From: Planctomycetota bacterium
GTDB lineage: Bacteria; Planctomycetota; UBA8108; UBA1146; JAJFFE01
Assembly: GCA_046154185.1 (NCBI GenBank)
Contig: JBJXGE010000032.1
Span: 139,163 to 203,162 of the forward strand
Length of the DNA: 64,000 nucleotides
Direction of reading: 5' to 3'
Position 1 is the first letter of the stretch. Each line of letters begins with the position of its first letter. The notes below the pieces were generated by a model. The model was not told the DNA's origin. It saw only the letters and a program-made list of their open reading frames with translations, and did no database searches. The translations under genes and the position numbers were made by a program. This document shows, one piece after another, positions 2,536-46,723 of this stretch.

Positions 2536-3141
2536 CTAGAAACCAACCGCGCGATGCGAAGTTGGCTCGAATTGAGCGAGCTGCGCCAACTGGAATTGCG
2601 TCGTGACGCAAAGGTGCCCGTTCACGTAGGCCTGACCGGAAACACGGCGTTCAGCCGAGACGTCCCCGGTCGCGACAACGTGCGGGATTGTGTCGAGCAG
2701 TTGCACGCTGAGCACGAGCTGCCCCACTTCCGTGATCTCGCGCGCCACGTCGAAGCTCTCCACACTCGCGAGCAACCACTGCCGTAGTCGAGGGCGCCGA
2801 GCAATCGGCTGCGCCGCGCTTTCATAGTCGAGCACGACCCCAGCGAGTTGCGCCAATGCCTCGAGCGCAAACGTCGACGGAAATACGAAACCGTGGCGGC
2901 GCTTGGCTAGCCCGCTCTCGTTGCCGGTCAGTGACTTAATCCCGACGCCGCTCTGCCCGGGAATCAACGTGAGCACACGATCGAGCAAGAGTTGCGGCTT
3001 GCGATGCGAGAGTATCCCTTGAATTTCTTCGTTCTCGAGTTGCAGCGCACCGCCGTGTAATGCACGCCGCAACGCGTCGACGCCGTTTGTCGACGGCTCC
3101 GACGGATGACCTCCGGTCTCGACGCTTGGCAATGAAATCAA
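2536..3141 (-). CDS. FabZ-like hot-dog fold dehydratase (divergent; the N-terminal ~40 aa may not be translated)
   Basis: HRKPQLLLDRVLTLIPGQSGVGIKSLTGNE ... FALEALAQLAGVVL matches the FabZ pattern (PHRYPFLLVDRV...GIK.VT.NE ... LEA.AQ), but the canonical GHFP motif is replaced. Confidence 0.5.
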   Translation of the reverse strand: MISLPSVETGGHPSEPSTNGVDALRRALHGGALQLENEEIQGILSHRKPQLLLDRVLTLIPGQSGVGIKSLTGNESGLAKRRHGFVFPSTFALEALAQLAGVVLDYESAAQPIARRPRLRQWLLASVESFDVAREITEVGQLVLSVQLLDTIPHVVATGDVSAERRVSGQAYVNGHLCVTTQFQLAQLAQFEPTSHRAVGF

Positions 3142-22612: not shown

Positions 22613-23191
22613 ATGAACAAGCAACAACCTGGCGGATTCACGCTCATAGAGCTCACCATTTCCGCCGCGCTCATGTCGCTGCTCGCCGCGGTCGCGCTCA
22701 ACATCGGTATGGAGTCGACTCGCATGGTCGCATTCGCCGATGCGGACACGCAGGTGCAAGCAGAAGCGAATCGCGGCTTCCGCCGCATTTCGGAAGTGTT
22801 GCGCAAAACCGGGTGGAACACCGAGCCGTTGACGGCAACGACCTATCCGGAGATTCCGGCCGGCAACACGGAACTGCGCATGCGAATGTTGGCTGATCTC
22901 GATGGCAACGGCTTTCCGTTCGACGAAGACACGGGCGACCTTGAATGGGACAACACAGTGTTCAGCGTGCGCTTCGACGCCGTGAACCAGACGGTGGCCA
23001 TTTACGATCCATTCGGCAACCAAGTCATGCTGATCGCGCGCCACGTCACAGCGTTCAGCGCGTCGACGTACCTGCAAGACCCGACTCTCAACTTCAACGA
23101 GATACGCTTACTAGTACAGGTTCAGCAAAACGGACCGCGAGGCGAATTGCTGAGCTACACGGCCAGTGGCAGCGTGCACATGCGCAACTGA
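22613..23191 (+). CDS. Prepilin-type N-terminal cleavage/methylation domain protein (pseudopilin)
   Basis: GGFTLIELTISAALMSLLAAVA class-III signal peptide motif. Lies 9 nt after the previous gene. Confidence 0.75.
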   Translation: MNKQQPGGFTLIELTISAALMSLLAAVALNIGMESTRMVAFADADTQVQAEANRGFRRISEVLRKTGWNTEPLTATTYPEIPAGNTELRMRMLADLDGNGFPFDEDTGDLEWDNTVFSVRFDAVNQTVAIYDPFGNQVMLIARHVTAFSASTYLQDPTLNFNEIRLLVQVQQNGPRGELLSYTASGSVHMRN

Positions 23192-23230
23192 GCAAGTTGC
23201 GCTGCCCGCTACGCGCCACTGCGTCGAGTC

Positions 23231-24829
23231 ATGGAAAGGTCGGTCAACATGCTCACGGCCAATCGCCGCGGGAGCTCTGAACGCGGCACGATTCTCATCT
23301 TGGTCATCGTGCTGGTGCTGACAATCAGTCTGATTGTCGCTGGCGCGGTTTCGACATCGTTCCATCAAGGCCGCAATACGCAGTACTCGCTCGCCCAAAC
23401 GAGCGCGCTATCGCTCGCCGAGAGCGTGACGGAAACTGCGCAGAAAAACATGCTGACCCAAGTGGCGAACTACGAGACGCCCACGCTCTCTGGCTCGCTC
23501 ACGATGGGAGGCACGCCCTATGACTACACGATTGAGCCGGTCGGCGTGCAGATTCAGCGCGCCGATGTCGACGGTGTGACTATGACGATCCAGCCGTACC
23601 GCATTCGCTCGTCGGTCGAAGTCGATCGCGGCGGCGCCACCGTGCATCGCATCGTCGAGCTCACGATGACACCCATCTTCCAATACATGATCTTCTATCG
23701 CGACGACCTCGAGATCCTGCCCGGCCCGAGCATGACGCTCGGTGGACGCGTGCACTCTAACGGCAGTATCTACGTCGGCTGCGGCAACACGCTCACCGTC
23801 AACAGCGACTACTTTCGCTGTACGGGCAAGATCCTGCGAGAGCGTAAGAATGACGGCAGCGCCACGGGCGGCACCGTCAACATCAAGGAATATCAAGACA
23901 CGAGCTACACCAACATGACGGCGTCGATGGACGCCGACAACCCGGATTGGACGAATCTCGCGCTCAATACTTGGCACGGCACCGTGATGGACGGCAGTCA
24001 TGCCGTCAATGAGGTCGCGGCCCCGTCGATCGCCAGCATCAAGGCGTTTCCTTCGCCCGGTGTGAAGGGCTACTTCCACGAGCACGCGGACCTCGTGGTG
24101 GTGGACGGCGTCGCATACGACCGCACTGGCACGGTTCTCACGCTGCCGGCGGGAACCGTGACCCAGCGCACCATGTACGATGGTCGCGAAAATCGCAACG
24201 TGACCGTCAGCGAGATCAACGTCGGTCTGCTCAACAGCTCCGGCGCGTTTCCGGCGAATGGATTGATCTACGCCTATCGCACGGACGCGTCGGCTGCGCA
24301 GCCGAACGGCATTCGGTTGACGAACGCGACCGAAATCCTCGCGCCGATGACGGTCGTGAGCGAAGACCCGGTCTACGTGCACGGAAACTTCAACACGGTG
24401 AACAAGAAGGGCGCTGCTGTCATCGCGGATGCCGTCAACTTGTTGTCACAAAACTGGAATGACACCAAGACGGCGACGAGCGGTCTGCCGAGCGCCGCGC
24501 CGACGACTTACAACCTCGCGATGGTGACCGGAATTGTCCCGACTCCGGATGGCGGCGGCTCGTACTCCGGCGGCTTCGAAAACCTGCCGCGTTTCCATGA
24601 GAACTGGTCGGGAGTCTCCTCGACCATCAATGGCGCGTTCATCAACTTGTTCGACAGCGAGATCGGCCGCGCACCGTGGATGTACGGCGGCCGCGCCTAC
24701 ACCGCGCCCATCCGCAACTGGGCCTTCGACCCCATGCTGCAAGACATCGACAATATGCCGCCTTTCACACCGAACGCGGTTTACTTCCGCCGCGTGGTGT
24801 GGGACGACGCCGTGCCGCTGCCGTTCTAA
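23231..24829 (+). CDS. Large PilX-N-like / minor pseudopilin-like protein with a beta-rich C-terminal domain
   Basis: RRGSSERGTILILVIVLVLTISLIVAGAV N-terminus resembles the PilX/GspK N-terminal domain. Third gene of the pseudopilin cluster. Confidence 0.6.
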   Translation: MERSVNMLTANRRGSSERGTILILVIVLVLTISLIVAGAVSTSFHQGRNTQYSLAQTSALSLAESVTETAQKNMLTQVANYETPTLSGSLTMGGTPYDYTIEPVGVQIQRADVDGVTMTIQPYRIRSSVEVDRGGATVHRIVELTMTPIFQYMIFYRDDLEILPGPSMTLGGRVHSNGSIYVGCGNTLTVNSDYFRCTGKILRERKNDGSATGGTVNIKEYQDTSYTNMTASMDADNPDWTNLALNTWHGTVMDGSHAVNEVAAPSIASIKAFPSPGVKGYFHEHADLVVVDGVAYDRTGTVLTLPAGTVTQRTMYDGRENRNVTVSEINVGLLNSSGAFPANGLIYAYRTDASAAQPNGIRLTNATEILAPMTVVSEDPVYVHGNFNTVNKKGAAVIADAVNLLSQNWNDTKTATSGLPSAAPTTYNLAMVTGIVPTPDGGGSYSGGFENLPRFHENWSGVSSTINGAFINLFDSEIGRAPWMYGGRAYTAPIRNWAFDPMLQDIDNMPPFTPNAVYFRRVVWDDAVPLPF

Positions 24830-39977: not shown

Positions 39978-40005
39978 TTGCATAAACTACTCCGCCGAAT
40001 ATTGT
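39978..40005 (+). promoter_or_regulatory. Candidate sigma-70-type promoter for the Bcp gene (TTGCAT - 16 nt - TATTGT)
   Basis: Hexamers read at 39978-39983 and 40000-40005, about 90 nt upstream of the ATG at 40094, which has GAGGAAGG as its SD. Confidence 0.35.
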
Positions 40006-40093
40006 GGCGGCCAGCGTGGGTCTTGGACGGTCTTCGACACGCAGTTGGCCGACAGGATTGACTCGGGAAGTTCAGCGCGAGAGGAAGGCCGAA

Positions 40094-41014
40094 ATGGCCA
40101 AGGCGAAGAAAAAAACCGCGAAATCCAATGCCGGCAAAGCCGCCAAAAAGCAGGCTCCCAGCAAGAAAAAGCCGACCGCCAAAAAGAGCGCGACCAAAAA
40201 GTCAGCGGCGTCCTCGGCGAAGACCTCGAAGAAAGCCGGCAAGAAACCGACCGGTACTAAGAAGAAAGTCGCCCCGAAGAAGCTCACCACCAAAAAAGTC
40301 GCCGCCAAAAAAACGGCGAAGAAACCGGCCAAGCCGAAAGCCAACTTGAAGGCGAAGACGACACGGCAGACAGGTCGTAGCGCGCCGGTGACGACGTCGG
40401 ACAGCCTACTCATCGCCGCGAGCTCGAGGCAGCCGGCTGCCGTCGCGCTCGCGCCGGAGCTGCACTCCGCGGTCGGCCGCCAACTCCCGGCGCTGACGCT
40501 CAACAATCAACGCGGCGAGGCAGTGCACTTGCACGACCTCGCACAGCGCGCGGGCCGACTCGTCCTCTACTTCTATCCAAAAGATGACACCCCAGGATGT
40601 ACGACCGAAGCTTGCGACTTTCGCGATCAGCACAGTCGCGTGCTCGCGACGGGTGCGATGATCGTTGGCGTGAGTCCGGACGATACCGAGAGCCACGCGA
40701 GCTTCGCTGGCAAATATCAGTTGCGTTTCGATTTGCTTGCGGACACCCAACATGAGCTCGCCGACGCGCTGGGAGTCTGGAAATTGAAGGAATTTAGCGG
40801 TCGACAATTTCATGGCGTGGAGCGAGCGACGTTTATCGTCGATCAGGACGCTCGCGTTCTCAGAGGCTGGCAACCGGTCAAGGTGGACGGCCATGTGCAG
40901 CAAATCGTCGACGAGTTGGAGCGTCTGCCAATGACCTCGGGCGAAACAGCACTCGCGACAGCGAGCGCCGGCGGCGGAAACGGCGACGCGTTGAACGATT
41001 TCTTCAAGACGTAA
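40094..41014 (+). CDS. bcp: Peroxiredoxin Bcp (thioredoxin-dependent thiol peroxidase) with ~100-aa N-terminal histone-H1-like Lys/Ala-rich tail
   Basis: FYPKDDTPGCTTEACDFRD peroxidatic/resolving Cys motif. N-terminus MAKAKKKTAKSNAGKAAKKQAPSKKKPTAKKSATKK...KKPAKPKANLKAK. Confidence 0.85.
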   Translation: MAKAKKKTAKSNAGKAAKKQAPSKKKPTAKKSATKKSAASSAKTSKKAGKKPTGTKKKVAPKKLTTKKVAAKKTAKKPAKPKANLKAKTTRQTGRSAPVTTSDSLLIAASSRQPAAVALAPELHSAVGRQLPALTLNNQRGEAVHLHDLAQRAGRLVLYFYPKDDTPGCTTEACDFRDQHSRVLATGAMIVGVSPDDTESHASFAGKYQLRFDLLADTQHELADALGVWKLKEFSGRQFHGVERATFIVDQDARVLRGWQPVKVDGHVQQIVDELERLPMTSGETALATASAGGGNGDALNDFFKT

Positions 41015-41056
41015 CTCCCTGCGCACGTTCGGGAGCTGGACCAGCCGGAGTATGGT

Positions 41057-41314
41057 TTGCGGTCCAGCTCGCTATTGAGAGAGCGACCCCCCGTGCTCGG
41101 CATCGTGACGCGGATCCTCGTTGTCGTCCTCATCGTGGCGACGATTGCCTATTGCCTGCAAAGGGCAAACCGGTCGCGCTTCAAGTGTCGCACGTGTCGC
41201 CACCGCCGCGTTCTCTATGACAACGGCGTCCGCTGCGGTTTCGGCGCCAAAGAAGTTTTCAAGAACGCCGTCCACATTGAAAACTGTCCGGATCACTCAC
41301 GAGGAAAACCCTAG
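41057..41314 (+). CDS. Small membrane protein with Cys cluster (hypothetical)
   Basis: TM-like ILVVVLIVATIAYCL followed by FKCRTCRHRR...RCGF. No other support. Confidence 0.3.
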   Translation: MRSSSLLRERPPVLGIVTRILVVVLIVATIAYCLQRANRSRFKCRTCRHRRVLYDNGVRCGFGAKEVFKNAVHIENCPDHSRGKP

Positions 41315-41325
41315 GAGTTCCCGCG

Positions 41326-41692
41326 ATGCTCAGTCTTTTCTCGCGCGGCAGTTTTCCCTGTCGCATCGTGCCATGTCTCATGGTGACGATCGTCATCGCG
41401 TGCAACGCTCGGTGCAGCGGGCCGCATGGGAGCCGTTTGATCGAAAGTCAGGAACGAGCTGAAGCGCCCGGACCGCAGCGCGTGACTCTGGCTACGCTGA
41501 TCGAAGAGCTCGTCGATCTCGCTGGGCCCGGCGCCGTCGTGCGGTTTCGCCCCCAGCGAAGAGATCGAACTCGGACGCGCCGATCTCGAGCGCGGCGAGA
41601 ATCGACTCACGATTGAGATCGTCGGTGCGAATCCATCGGCGCTCGATGGCTTCATGTTTGGAATCGACTATCTGCGGGTTGCCACGGATTGA
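41326..41692 (+). pseudogene. Small secreted/lipoprotein-like ORF apparently frameshifted at a C5 run (~41548-41552). The protein-like C-terminus continues in the +1 frame to the stop at 41690-41692.
   Basis: Frame A encodes a lipobox-like MVTIVIAC and then an Arg-rich tail. The +1 frame encodes SEEIELGRADLERGENRLTIEIVGANPSALDGFMFGIDYLRVATD. Confidence 0.3.
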
Positions 41693-41702
41693 AGGAAAAC
41701 AA

Positions 41703-41781
41703 AAAACTGCTGGGCCTGCAAGGCCCACAGATTAAAGCCCAGGGTTGGCCGGTCTGCCGGCCTACCCTGGGTCTATCGCAT
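41703..41781 (-). terminator. Compound hairpin terminator downstream of the minus-strand thioredoxin-fold gene
   Basis: cccagggt...accctggg 8-bp stem with inner ggccgg/ccggcc. Then gggcc-tgcaa-ggccc, followed on the minus strand by agcagttttttgttttcc. Confidence 0.5.
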
Positions 41782-41793
41782 GCGAGAAATTAC

Positions 41794-43413
41794 TTATTGC
41801 GGCGCGAGCATTTTCTCGAGGGTCGCCTTGAGTTCTTTTTGACCGCCTTCGCCAAACCCGACGTCGAACGAGACGACTTTGCCTTCGCGGTCGAGCCAGA
41901 AGCTGGTCGGGTAACCGCGCACGCCGTAGCTTTCGCTCGCGGTCTTGCCGCCCATGAGCACGATCGGATGCGTGAGCTTCTTCTTGTCGACGAACCGTTT
42001 CACTTGCTCGGCCGATTCGTCGTAGCCGTTGACGGCGAGCACCGAAAAACCACGCGTCTTGAACTCTTCATGCAGTGCCGTTAAGTGCGGAGCCTCCGCA
42101 CGACAAGGCCCTCAGCCAACCCCCCAAAACGTCAGGAGCACGACCTTGCCTTTGAAACTCGCCAGGCTGACCGGTTGGCCATCGAGTCCGTTGAGCGTGA
42201 AATCGGGCGCCGGCTGGCCGACGAGTTTCTGCAATTTCTCATCGCCGCCCGCATCACCCTTCATCCAAGCGGCGAACTCTTCGGCTTGCGCGACGAGCGC
42301 CTGCGCGACATCGTCGAGACCGGCGCGCGGAAAACGCTTCGCAAAGTCCGCAGCGACTGCCTGCATTTTCGCGACGTCTTGCATGTTTTCGTTCGCGTAG
42401 TGGAGCACATTGAGCGCGCCGTCGAGCTCCGCCAGGTAGTCGTCTGGCAGCTTGTTGCAGGCGACCTCCCGCAGCTCGACTTCGCGTTCCATACGGTATT
42501 GCGCGCCGACACCAATCTGAGTCATCGAGCGAAACGCGACGACGCGTCCCTGGTCGAGATTGATTTCAAAACGCTCGTTAAATTGAAGGAGCTGCGGGTT
42601 CTCGGGTTCGAATTCGTCGCCGTCCACCTCGCTAGCGGCGGGCGCAGCTTGGCCGTCGGCGGGTTTCTCCGCCGGCTGCGGCGGTTCCGCTTGGAGGTCT
42701 TTCTTGGCCTCGCCCTGCTCACCGGCGCCGGACTCTGGGTTTTCCGGCGCCGCTTCGGCCGGTTCCGGCCCACCCATTTTGAGCTCGATCGGCAACGGTC
42801 CAACCGCCTCGATGGTCACCTCGGCGACGCGCTCACCCGCCGCGTTCTTCGCGTGCGCAACAGTGATGCGCTGCTCGATGTCATTCCGGATGCCGAAGAA
42901 CTCGAACGCCCGCTTCACTTGCGTCGTCCCAGGCGTACCCATCATCGTTGTGTCGAGTTCCGGAAACGGCGGTACTACCTCGCCGGGCCCGCCAATCATC
43001 ATCGCCGGCTGTGCACCGGCCGGCAGCGCTTTGGTCTCGGGTTGAAATCGATTCCGCGCCAGCTCCTTGACCAAGATCGCGGCGCTCGGGCGCACGCGAA
43101 ACATGTCGTTCGAACCGCTCTTGAGCTGATGCCGCACGACCCACCCGAGGCGCAGTTTTCCGTCGGCCGCTTGCGAGAGCACTTGCAGCTTCGCCGCGAC
43201 GTCGCTCTCCATGACCTGTGGCTCTGACTGCGGCTCGCCTATGCCGCTGAACGCCATGCGGCTCTTGCCTTGATACTCGATCTCCGTACCAACCGGGAGT
43301 CGCACCCAGTCCTTCACGCCATCGGCTGTTGCGTTGCGAGCGAGGGCTGCAAGACCTAGCGGCAGCACGACGACGCCAAGAACAATCAGCCAAGCTCGCC
43401 AAGTCCTCTGCAT
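41794..43413 (-). CDS. Large secreted protein with C-terminal TlpA/ResA-like thiol:disulfide oxidoreductase domain. In-frame TGA at 42112-42114 occupies the first Cys of the CxxC motif (candidate selenocysteine, U-G-P-C).
   Basis: The two ORF-track pieces (42112-43470 and 41794-42042) are in the same frame. The joint reads ...[67 protein letters not shown]...[14 protein letters not shown]. Start set at ATG 43411-43413 with GGAG upstream, followed by a hydrophobic segment. Confidence 0.6.
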
Positions 43414-43444
43414 TCCATCTCCATTCTTGCGAAGGCGTCGGCCC

Positions 43445-46400
43445 TCACATGTTGCGCCGGTACTGACCACCCACTTCGTAGAGCGCGTGCGTCATCTGGC
43501 CGAGACTTGCGACGCGCACGGTATTCATGAGTTCGGCGAAAATGTTGCCGCCGTGGGCCGCGACTTCCTGCAAGCGCTTGAGCGCCGCAGGCGCCGCCGC
43601 CGCGTGGCGCGCTTGAAATGCGCGCAGCTCCGCAATGCGTTGAGTTTTGATCTCTGGCGCACAACGGCGCAATTCGACCTCCCGCGGCTCGCTCGCGCCC
43701 GCGTCATCGCGCGTGAAGGTGTTCACGCCGATGACCGGCAGCTCGCCTGAGTGTTTCTTCGTTTCGTAGAGCAGCGACTCGTCTTGAATCTTGCCGCGTT
43801 GATATTGCCGCTCCATCGCGCCGATCACGCCGCCGCGATCATTCAGCCGCAAGAACTCCTCGAGCACGGCTTCTTCCACGAGCTCCGTCAGCTCCTCGAC
43901 GATGTAGGCGCCTTGCAGCGGATTGTCATTCCTCGCGATCCCAAACTCGCGCGCAATGATGAGCTGAATCGCCATTGCGCGACGTACGGATCCCTCCGTC
44001 GGCGTCGTGATCGCTTCGTCGTAAGCGTTCGTGTGCAGCGAATTGCAGCTATCGTAGTAGGCAGTGAGCGCCTGTAACGTCGTGCGAATGTCATTGAAGT
44101 CGATCTCCATGGCGTGCAACGAGCGGCCGGAGGTTTGAATATGGTATTTGAGCTTCTGCGAGCGCGCGTTGGCGTGATAGACGTCGCGCATCGCCACGGC
44201 CCAGATGCGGCGCGCGACGCGGCCCATAACTGAGTACTCCGCATCGAGCCCGTTCGAAAAAAAGAACGACAGATTCGGCGCGAAGTCGTCGATGTGCATG
44301 CCGCGGGCGAGATAGTACTCGACATACGTGAGCCCGTTCGCCAGCGTGAATGCGAGCTGCGTGATGGGATTTGCGCCCGCCTCCGCTATGTGGTACCCGC
44401 TGATCGAGACCGAGTAATAATTGCGGATCTGTTGCTCAATGAAAACCTGCTGCATATCGCCCATCATGCGGAGCGCAAACTCCGTGGAGAATATGCAGGT
44501 GTTTTGCGCCTGATCCTCCTTCAGGATGTCGGCCTGCACGGTCCCACGCACCGTCGCAACCGTTTGGGCGCGGATCGCCGCCAGCTCGTCGGTGTTCGGT
44601 GCGCGGTGCGTGCGCCGCGTGAAGACTTCGACTTGCTGATCAATGGCGGCGTTGAAAAACATGGCAAGGATGATCGGCGCCGGTCCGTTGATGGTCATCG
44701 ACACCGAGGTGCTCGGGTGGCACAGGTCGAAACCTTGATACAACTTCTTCATGTCGTCGAGCGTGCAGATGCTGACGCCGCTCTCGCCGACTTTGCCATA
44801 AATATCCGGGCGTTCGGCCGGGTCTTCACCGTAGAGCGTCACGCTATCGAAGGCGGTCGAGAGCCGCTTCGAAGGCTCACCGCGACACAAATAATGAAAA
44901 CGCGCGTTGGTCTGCTCCGGTGGGCCTTCGCCCGCGAACATGCGCTTCGGATCCTCATCACGCCGCCGGAACGGAAAGACGCCGCCCGTGAAGGGAAAGT
45001 CCCCCGGGAGATTCTCGAGCATGAGAAACCGCAGCAGCTCCGCCTTCGATTCAAAGCGAGGTAGCGCTATGCGCGAGAGTTTGCTGCCGGCGAGCGTGAC
45101 GGTCTTGAGTGGCTCGCGCCTTTCCTCGTCGCGGATCTTATAGACCAGCTCATCGGCGCAGTACGCGTTGCGCCGCGCCGGCCATGATTCGAGCAACTGG
45201 CGCGCGTCGGGCGCGAGCTCGATGTTCTGGGCGCGCGCGCGGAGGCGCGCCGCCGCGTCTGCGCCGCCCGGCTCGGCGCCGACCAGTTCGGCGCTGCGTT
45301 CGAGCGCTTCGAGGTCGCGCGCGCGCTCAACTTCCAGCGTGACGCGCTGTTTGTAGCCACGCACTGCGCGCACGATCTCGAGCAAATAATTGCTGCGCTG
45401 CGCCGGAATGATGCTCGCTCGCTCGACGACTTGATGGGTTGCGACCGCCGCGGGCATTTGCCAACCTGGGACATCGCGCGCTCGTGCCCACGTCTCGAGC
45501 TCCTGCAACAGTCGCTGATAAAACCGTTCTACACCCGGATCATTGAAGTGGCTCGCAACGGTCCCGTAAACCGGTAGGTCGTCGTCGCGCACCGAGCCGT
45601 CGAACAGTTTCCGGCTGCGTCGATACTGTTTGCGTACGTCGCGCAGCGCATCTTCGCTACCGCGCTTGTCGAACTTGTTGAGTGCGATGAGATGCGCATA
45701 GTCGATCATGTCGATTTTCTCGAGCTGGGTGCTTGCACCGTAGTCGCCCGTCATCACGTAAATCGCTACGTCGGAGATATCGGCGATCTGAGAATCGCCT
45801 TGGCCAATACCGGAAGTCTCAACGAGCACCAAATCGAAACCATCGTTTTTCAGAACTTGTAGCGCACTGCGAATTGCGGCCGGCAACGCCGCACCGCTCT
45901 GACGCGTTGCGAGCGAGCGCATAAAAACGCGCGGGTGATGCACCGAGTTCATGCGAATGCGATCGCCGAGCAGCGCGCCGCCGGTGCGCCGCTTGGTGGG
46001 ATCGGCGGAGATGATGGCGAACCGACGGTTCGGAAAATCGGCGAGGAGTCGCCGTAAAATCTCGTCGGTGAGTGACGACTTGCCGGCACCGCCGGTGCCG
46101 GTGATGCCGACGACCGGGATTGGCGCGCCGGGCGTCGCGGTCGCAGGCGCCGTGGTGGCTTGTTCTTCGACTTCGGTGATGCGACACGGCAGCGAGCCGT
46201 TCCGTTGCGCGCGGAGTTCGCCACCGCGCTGGCGCTTCACCCGCTCGAGCATGTCCTGAATCATCCCGTGCAAGCCGAGTCGCCGCCCATCCTCCGGTGA
46301 ATAGATGCGATCGATCCCATATTGCTCCAACGCGCGAATCTCAACCGGCACGATCACGCCGCCGCCGCCGCCGAAGATGCGAATCCACGGCGCGCGCTTC

Positions 46401-46723
46401 TCTCGCAGCAAATCGTGCATGTAACGAAAAAACTCGTTATGGCCGCCTTGATACGACGACACCGCTATCGCGTCGGCGTCTTCTTGCACGGCGGTATCGA
46501 CGATCTCTTCGGCGGATCGATTGTGTCCAAGGTGGATCACTTCGGCGCCGGCGTCGAGTAAGACGCGGCGCATCACATTGATCGAGGCATCGTGACCGTC
46601 GTAGAGTGATGCAGCCGTGACAAATCGTGAGGGGCGTACCATGAGAGTTTCATTCCCGGAGAACCCGCGGAGCGGCGGCCCAAGTCGTGAACCGAACGCA
46701 GAATATCCGCTGGTGGCGGACAA
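43445..46723 (-). CDS. icmF: Fused isobutyryl-CoA mutase (B12-binding domain + MeaB-like G-domain + mutase catalytic domain)
   Basis: N-terminal cobalamin-binding region ([25 protein letters not shown]). P-loop [18 protein letters not shown]. Large C-terminal methylmalonyl-CoA-mutase-like barrel. 1092 aa. Confidence 0.9.

Follow-up and report, generated by a model that had tools for sequence, protein, structure and literature searches.

We analysed a 64,000-nucleotide stretch of DNA from a Planctomycetota bacterium (contig JBJXGE010000032.1; hereafter the window) and focus here on a minus-strand gene that very probably encodes a selenoprotein, namely a TlpA-like thiol:disulfide oxidoreductase with selenocysteine (Sec, U) in its active site. 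The reading frame runs from an ATG at 43413 to a TAA at 41796-41794, with one TGA (42114-42112) as its sole interruption. The initial annotation had described two minus-strand open reading frames (ORFs) that lie in a single frame and are parted only by this TGA, and both the ORF read and the translation confirm this arrangement. Across the junction the peptide reads FWGVG-[UGA]-GPC, with AVNGYDE further downstream, and third codon positions have practically the same GC fraction (GC3) on either side of the TGA, 0.73 upstream and 0.74 downstream.

The part of the predicted protein that spans the TGA, residues 398-522, matches the Pfam families PF00578 with 92.4 bits (cut-off 26) and PF08534 with 91 bits (cut-off 26.6), both above their cut-offs, so that the original assignment to the TlpA-like thiol:disulfide oxidoreductases holds. 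The motif U434-G-P-C437 sits after the first strand, and the C/U-x-x-C that the TlpA-like fold requires is present. Profiles for named families in NCBIfam scored below their cut-offs, namely ResA (NF002854) with 102.8 versus 170 bits, TlpA (NF047696) with 61.4 versus 230 and DsbE/CcmG (TIGR00385) with 40.7 versus 123; the second-best match was NF041054, ResA-like WAxxUGC, with 65.4 bits versus a cut-off of 300. Judged by these profile scores, the domain is a generic TlpA-like thioredoxin fold, related to but outside the named ResA, TlpA and DsbE/CcmG equivalogs. Pro502 of the conserved YPT motif would occupy the position of the thioredoxin-fold cis-Pro loop, where general knowledge of the fold leads us to expect a cis conformation. 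The active site of TlpA-like proteins is usually preceded by Trp (W-C/U-x-P-C); here the residue before U-x-P-C is Gly, not Trp, and the closest Cys relatives likewise have no Trp at this place. A peroxiredoxin (PxxxTxxC or TxxU) was considered and rejected, as F-W-G-V-G-U has no Thr, Ser or Pro at the corresponding position and the PrxU profile gave 17.7 bits versus 270.

A search of 5.8 billion proteins returned matches to the C-terminal domain only, the best of which carry Cys at the column of the UGA. The motif is FWGVGCGPCRQEAPHL in P0001, the closest Cys homologue (54% identical in the domain), FWGVACGPC in P0002 and in the loci L011 to L015, and FWGVACGAC in P0003; in all, Cys is aligned with the UGA in P0001 to P0005 and in L010 to L016. 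That the UGA falls on the nucleophilic first Cys, as originally proposed, is borne out by the closest homologues, which read FWGVG-C-GPC across this column. Among the matches listed from 185,579 species genomes, the planctomycete Cys relatives (48-54% identity) all carry FWGVAC; they come from Roseiconus, Stieleria, Rhodopirellula, and Pirellulaceae and Planctomycetia metagenome-assembled genomes. Some loci (L016, L023, L040, L042 and L080) hold two TlpA-like genes or domains of the Cys type in tandem, within about 650 nt.

The UGA itself recurs at the same column. Two public predicted proteins, P0122 and P0123, end in ...LLSFWGVA and ...LLAFWGYG, exactly at this column, and the corresponding DNA (L210/L211 and L212) has a TGA there, followed by an identical 17-nt hairpin and a complete domain that is at most 70% identical to that of the window. 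Since L210 to L212 were found without any constraint on the UGA site, they provide the least biased evidence. Two further loci, L017 (Planctomycetes bacterium UBA1146, CAVOEM010000009.1) and L018 (Planctomycetota bin110s, JAAZXB010000005.1), were found via a PDF...G peptide pattern that lies upstream of the UGA site and does not cover it. Both read AFWGYS-TGA-GACRAESPHL and have the same hairpin at the same offset as the window. The genes for these Sec-TlpA proteins (around position 3124 in each locus) have an N-terminal extension of about 360-400 residues and are probably split or shortened in the deposited annotations, as are P0122 and P0123. The initial annotation had proposed to align homologues and look for Cys or Sec at this column; Cys was found in P0001 to P0005, and TGA in L017, L018 and L210 to L212.

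Metagenomes were scanned with the pattern F-W-[GA]-x-x-TGA-G-[PA]-C-R-x-E, set at the amino-acid level, with no constraint on third codon positions or on the hairpin's A-x-P-H codons. At least 120 TGA-bearing stretches were found (L090 to L209), far above the handful expected by chance from the information content of the pattern, and all 120 continue in frame into the TlpA-like domain. Close relatives of the window gene are among them: L127 (57% identity, with VNGYDE kept), L131, L134, L192 and L208, which share FWGVG-U-GPC, and L115, L121, L183 and L184.

The initial annotation had also pointed to a perfect hairpin at 42085-42101, 11 nt after the UGA and with GG in its loop, as resembling a selenocysteine insertion sequence (SECIS). 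The hairpin is confirmed: ten unpaired nucleotides follow the UGA, the stem starts at the 11th nucleotide and the loop at the 18th, and the hairpin alone folds with a free energy (dG) of -9.9 kcal/mol (z = -3.7 versus shuffles); the wider 71 nt around it are not unusually stable (z = +1.27). In the window, about 0.03 perfect 7-bp hairpins are expected to follow any one TGA at a distance suitable for a SECIS. By itself, without comparative data, the hairpin is suggestive, no more. The published model of bacterial SECIS elements comprises a loop of 3-9 nt, a stem of 4-16 bp, a UGA-to-loop distance of 16-37 nt, a G in the first two loop positions and a minimum free energy of at most -7.5 kcal/mol (PMC13188914). 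The window hairpin lies within all of these constraints. Rfam, searched with the whole window at gathering thresholds and with 41950-42250 at E values up to 10, gave nothing relevant, and it holds no general model for this SECIS type.

The comparison of UGA and Cys forms was made in the stem register of the window, in which +14..+20 pairs with +24..+30. The UGA forms (n = 109 distinct) have a mean of 6.0 of 7 pairs and 55/109 are perfect, versus a mean of 3.6 of 7 and no perfect stem among the Cys homologues with the same C-x-x-C-R-x-E-x-P peptide (n = 43; Mann-Whitney p = 4e-15). By stem position, pairing amounts to 96/84/87/91/84/100/56% in the Sec forms and 84/26/40/44/49/100/14% in the Cys forms. 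Even L012, a Cys form with the identical peptide CRAEAPH, has only 3/7 pairs. Within the UGA forms the stem changes in a compensatory manner: besides GUGCGGA/UCCGCAC we found GUAAGGA/UCCUUAC, GUACGGA/UCCGUAC, GUAGGGA/UCCCUAC, GUCGGGA/UCCCGAC, GUGAGGA/UCCUCAC, GUGGGGA/UCCCCAC, GUGUGGA/UCCACAC and GCGAGGA/CCUCGC. Because of these changes, residue x of R-x-E varies together with both the H/Y/D/R codon and the third, synonymous base of the Pro codon; at the nucleotide level, it is the second base of the x codon that covaries with the third base of the Pro codon. Selection at the protein level cannot explain the covariation of a residue with a synonymous base.

The covariation score is 0.331 (92 distinct sequences), compared to 0.109 after shuffling (0/500 shuffles reach the observed value) and at most 0.132 in slid controls. 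The pair 26-36 occurs in all four Watson-Crick types (CG 33, AU 18, GC 16, UA 10) and as GU in 8, and RNAalifold independently predicts the same helix. The first loop base is G in 99/109 sequences, and 77 have G or U as the second. The UGA-bearing relatives L115, L127, L184, L210 and L212 have exactly the 17-nt hairpin of the window, with all 17 bases identical in L210 and L212. A marine subfamily with GFW/GYW-U-GPCRGEIPH (L165, L171, L174, L189 and L203) has a hairpin in a shifted register, GUGAG-AUCC-CUCAC, with a 5-bp stem and a 4-nt loop, and therefore scores only 3-4/7 in the register of the window. The SECIS of this subfamily has thus shifted its place inside the same codons.

These lines of evidence, namely the Sec/Cys pairs, the recurrent UGA, the covariation confined to the UGA forms and the purifying selection described below, strongly support the central claim of the initial annotation, a TlpA-like protein that has Sec in place of the first Cys of CxxC and a SECIS element downstream in its gene. 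From sequence comparison, we consider it very probable that the locus is a functional selenoprotein gene. Several points weigh against this conclusion. The metagenome pattern demanded a TGA, so the count of at least 120 says nothing on the frequency of Sec forms. Relatedness among the Sec sequences inflates the shuffle statistics, and the Cys controls are taxonomically broader than the Sec set. The hairpin resembles the SECIS of E. coli fdhF in that the stem-loop lies immediately 3' of the UGA in the coding sequence (CDS), and its apical loop has G and then G/U about equally far from the UGA, but at 17 nt it is minimal, with a 3-nt loop and without the bulged U of fdhF, and binding by SelB is here a prediction. 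Lastly, a tRNA scan and tblastn with E. coli SelA, SelB and SelD revealed no selA, selB, selD or tRNA-Sec within the 64-kb window; the same searches of 207 further loci gave no Sec machinery either, with one weak match to a GTPase domain in L161.

The absence of this machinery from the window is an argument for the alternative that survives best, although we consider it unlikely: a relic gene in which the SECIS is kept and the Sec machinery has been lost, so that translation ends at the UGA and the product, 433 residues long, has no active site. Bacterial lineages have frequently lost the Sec trait in evolution (PMC1794560). A relic should, however, decay past the UGA, and the 105 codons that follow are intact, with the GC3 values given above and a perfect hairpin. 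Over 102-105 of these codons, dN/dS (the ratio of nonsynonymous to synonymous substitution) is 0.21-0.48 versus five UGA-bearing relatives, and synonymous differences are near saturation (proportion, pS, 0.54-0.68); versus L212, identity is 70% and dN/dS 0.23. By this measure the codons after the UGA are under purifying selection, and a loss of Sec decoding would need to be very recent, as no decay is left. We infer active Sec decoding in this organism because the SECIS and the ORF are intact and under selection, and because sel genes are on record for some Planctomycetes: the full set of selA, selB, selC and selD has been described in the Porphyra-associated Planctomycetes P1 and P2, Gemmata obscuriglobus and Isosphaera pallida, and in P1 the thiol-disulfide-isomerase-like and AhpC/TSA selenoprotein candidates were annotated as split genes (PMC4807772, tables S8, S9).

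A nonsense mutation or sequencing error that turned TGY into TGA in a Cys-form TlpA gene, i.e., a pseudogene or an artefact, is very unlikely. One base change parts TGA from TGC or TGT, and the closest Cys homologue is 54% identical in the domain. Such a gene would be expected to resemble the Cys forms, which have no hairpin even where the peptide CRAEAPH is identical (L012), whereas the hairpin of the window is exactly that of UGA-bearing L115, L127, L184, L210 and L212, and all other colinear members of the N-terminal architecture also have TGA. The initial annotation had argued that an indel in the G6 run restores no CxxC, and reading the sequence directly with one G more or one G less gave the same result.

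Even less probable are two separate products, an N-terminal protein that ends at the UGA and a downstream domain initiated on its own, e.g., at the GTG at 42042. ORF callers split the locus in this way, and public gene predictions end homologues at the same place; a start at 42042 would nevertheless leave out the first strand together with the entire UxxC site, the sequence just past the UGA offers neither a start codon nor a ribosome-binding site, and homology to single-chain Cys proteins is unbroken across the UGA. Reading of the UGA by other means than Sec, through a reassigned code or a near-cognate Trp or Cys tRNA, is just as improbable: low-level UGA read-through does occur in bacteria, but icmF and further long ORFs of the window (62% GC) end in UGA as an ordinary stop, which shows that the code is unchanged, and it is Sec in particular that is indicated by the alignment with Cys and by the SECIS-type hairpin under selection.

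Under the favoured interpretation as a selenoprotein gene, the locus would encode one exported protein of 539 residues, comprising a signal peptide or anchor, a region of about 370 residues and a TlpA/ResA-like domain with U-G-P-C in place of C-G-P-C. Following the E. coli paradigm, the UGA at 42112-42114 would not be read as a stop; SelB carrying Sec-tRNA(Sec) would bind the hairpin and insert Sec434. The protein would presumably be exported from the cytoplasm. By analogy with TlpA and ResA, Sec434 may attack a substrate disulfide to form a selenenylsulfide that Cys437 resolves, after which the oxidised U-C pair may be re-reduced by a membrane electron carrier of the CcdA/DsbD type. In a neighbourhood survey, no CcdA/DsbD-type gene and no obvious substrate gene were found adjoining the selenoprotein gene, and no cytochrome c maturation or Sco genes near it. 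The coordinates of the features are collected in Table 1.

Table 1. Features of the predicted selenoprotein gene, with positions in the window
Feature	Position	Strand	Remarks
Predicted complete selenoprotein CDS	41794..43413	-	539 codons + TAA; Sec = codon 434
Putative signal peptide or membrane anchor	43339..43413	-	Hydrophobic, AxA-type end; predicted from sequence
N-terminal region	42223..43338	-	Residues ~26-397; acidic Pro-rich low-complexity linker at ~42598-42774
TlpA-like (AhpC-TSA / Redoxin) thioredoxin-fold domain	41848..42222	-	Residues 398-522; 48-57% identical to planctomycete TlpA-like proteins
In-frame UGA, predicted to be read as selenocysteine 434, nucleophilic first position of UxxC (U-G-P-C)	42112..42114	-	
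TGT, Cys437, predicted resolving second position of UxxC	42103..42105	-	Invariant column in alignment A2
Predicted bacterial SECIS hairpin GUGCGGA-GGC-UCCGCAC, in CDS	42085..42101	-	7-bp stem, 3-nt loop, 17 nt UGA-to-loop
Pro502 of conserved YPT motif (Y501-P502-T503)	41908..41910	-	Invariant versus P0001, conserved in A2
GGAG, Shine-Dalgarno-like, 5 nt upstream of ATG	43419..43422	-	From sequence; function putative
Terminator-like hairpin UGGGCCUUGCAGGCCCA, then T run	41701..41727	-	~67 nt after TAA; consensus match only

The N-terminal region, about 395 residues with the putative signal peptide included, contains a single Cys. It comprises a putative signal peptide, a beta-rich segment in which the motif W-x-x-L/F-P-V-G-x-x-I-x-Y-x-G occurs, an acidic linker and a helical segment. 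No match was found with Pfam profiles or in a word-index homology search, and an exhaustive phmmer search of 1.84 billion representatives returned only three weak matches. Among these three are P0122 (433 aa) and P0123 (334 aa), which align colinearly with the region from the W-x-x-L/F-P-V-G motif on, at 25-26% identity; the loci L210 to L212 were thus reached by way of the N-terminal region only. An AlphaFold model of the N-terminal fragment has a helix at residues 3-29; the single-sequence model has a mean predicted local distance difference test (pLDDT) score of 39 and is unusable. A hidden Markov model (HMM) built from three N-terminal regions found only a marginal match (L192) among 122 read-through Sec proteins, hence the region is not a general feature of Sec-TlpA proteins. 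The initial annotation had called the whole protein an undescribed architecture. This cannot be maintained, as at least three other loci (L210-L212) share a colinear N-terminal region fused to Sec-TlpA; the architecture is rare, not unique. All colinear members found (the window, L210/L211 and L212) use Sec. It is possible, though rather doubtful, that the N-terminal region and Sec-TlpA together define a distinct family of exported planctomycete-type selenoproteins. A role of the region in substrate recruitment would be a guess.

Directly upstream of the selenoprotein gene, at 43445-46723 on the minus strand, lies a gene for a fused IcmF-type isobutyryl-CoA mutase of 1092 aa with B12-binding, MeaB GTPase and mutase domains. 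Its stop is the TGA at 43447-43445, and the gap to the ATG of the selenoprotein gene is 31 nt, the distance that the initial annotation had given and that the coordinates confirm. With this short gap and no terminator in between, the two genes may be co-transcribed; a functional link is not evident. A consensus scan found no terminator-like site between the TGA and the TAA of the selenoprotein gene, and two hairpins lie just past its stop (41745-41775 and 41711-41727). The next gene, at 40004-41014 on the plus strand, encodes an AhpC/TSA, Bcp-like peroxiredoxin domain of the Cys type (...YFYPKDDTPGCTTEA...). If its GTG start is real, about 150 Lys/Ala-rich, histone-H1-like low-complexity residues precede this domain. 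The gene, which lies 0.8 kb away from the selenoprotein gene and converges on it, would be a second one for a thiol peroxidase or redoxin. The roughly 780 nt between the two convergent redox genes (41015-41793) contain only short overlapping ORFs on both strands, to none of which a gene could be assigned.

A scan of the window for further pairs of ORFs connected through a TGA, with a coding-like GC3 in both partners, yielded shadow frames and adjacent genes only and no second selenoprotein candidate. One such pair, ORFs of 192 and 532 aa in the same frame at 22613-24829 on the plus strand, with the TGA at 23189-23191, was rejected: its junction (SVHMRN * ASCAARYAPL) has no redox motif, and the pair looks like adjacent genes, not recoding.

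TlpA-like selenoproteins with UxxC were reportedly predicted by Kryukov and Gladyshev, and by Zhang and Gladyshev. Thiol:disulfide oxidoreductase selenoproteins of the TlpA-like, thiol-disulfide-isomerase-like and Prx-like UxxC types (cd02966 / PF00578 / PF08534) have been catalogued since 2004-2008 and count among the families abundant in marine metagenomes (PMC1794560, PMC2398784, PMC13188914). The TlpA-like and Prx-like ones are an established family, which has been reported from Planctomycetes as well. The window protein shares with the known UxxC TlpA-like selenoproteins the fold, the Pfam families, the position of the nucleophilic Sec, the abundance of Cys homologues and a SECIS within the CDS right after the UGA, but differs in its motif FWGVG-U-GPC and in an N-terminal region almost without relatives. 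NF041054, the NCBI-curated selenoprotein equivalog, likewise has Sec in the active site of a ResA-like thioredoxin fold; the window protein falls outside this family, having U-G-P-C (GVGUGPC) instead of W-A-x-x-U-G-C. Bradyrhizobium TlpA, Bacillus ResA and CcmG/DsbE resemble it in the AhpC-TSA/Redoxin-type domain, the N-terminal export or anchor segment (here putative), the CxxC-type site and the YPT loop, whereas Sec in place of the first Cys and the long N-terminal extension set the window protein apart. The P1 and P2 candidates from Porphyra-associated Planctomycetes are again of the thiol-disulfide isomerase-like thioredoxin and AhpC/TSA types and were annotated as two split genes (PMC4807772). 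Compared by description, the two thiol-disulfide isomerase-like candidates differ in that bSECISearch found no SECIS in them, whereas the window hairpin is clear. On its sequence, the gene belongs to the known UxxC selenoprotein type, in a subfamily with FWG-x-G/A-U-G-P-C and with a rare N-terminal extension.

The finding leaves selenoprotein biology as known unchanged and is a useful catch that will not surprise a specialist. Its first consequence is an annotation correction: gene callers split or shorten the gene, as they did with P0122, P0123 and probably L017 and L018, and as a result the active redox domain of a predicted exported oxidoreductase is missing from the predicted proteome. Second, the hairpin is an unusually clean minimal bacterial SECIS of 17 nt, placed within the codons of R-x-E-x-P-H/Y, where the choice of amino acids covaries with pairing; searches for the subfamily could use this R-x-E-x-P-H/Y hairpin pattern as a specific model. 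For the source organism, the finding implies that it decodes Sec. Should the N-terminal region and Sec-TlpA indeed form a distinct family, this would suggest a specialised substrate-recruiting module with a selenium-requiring redox partner domain.

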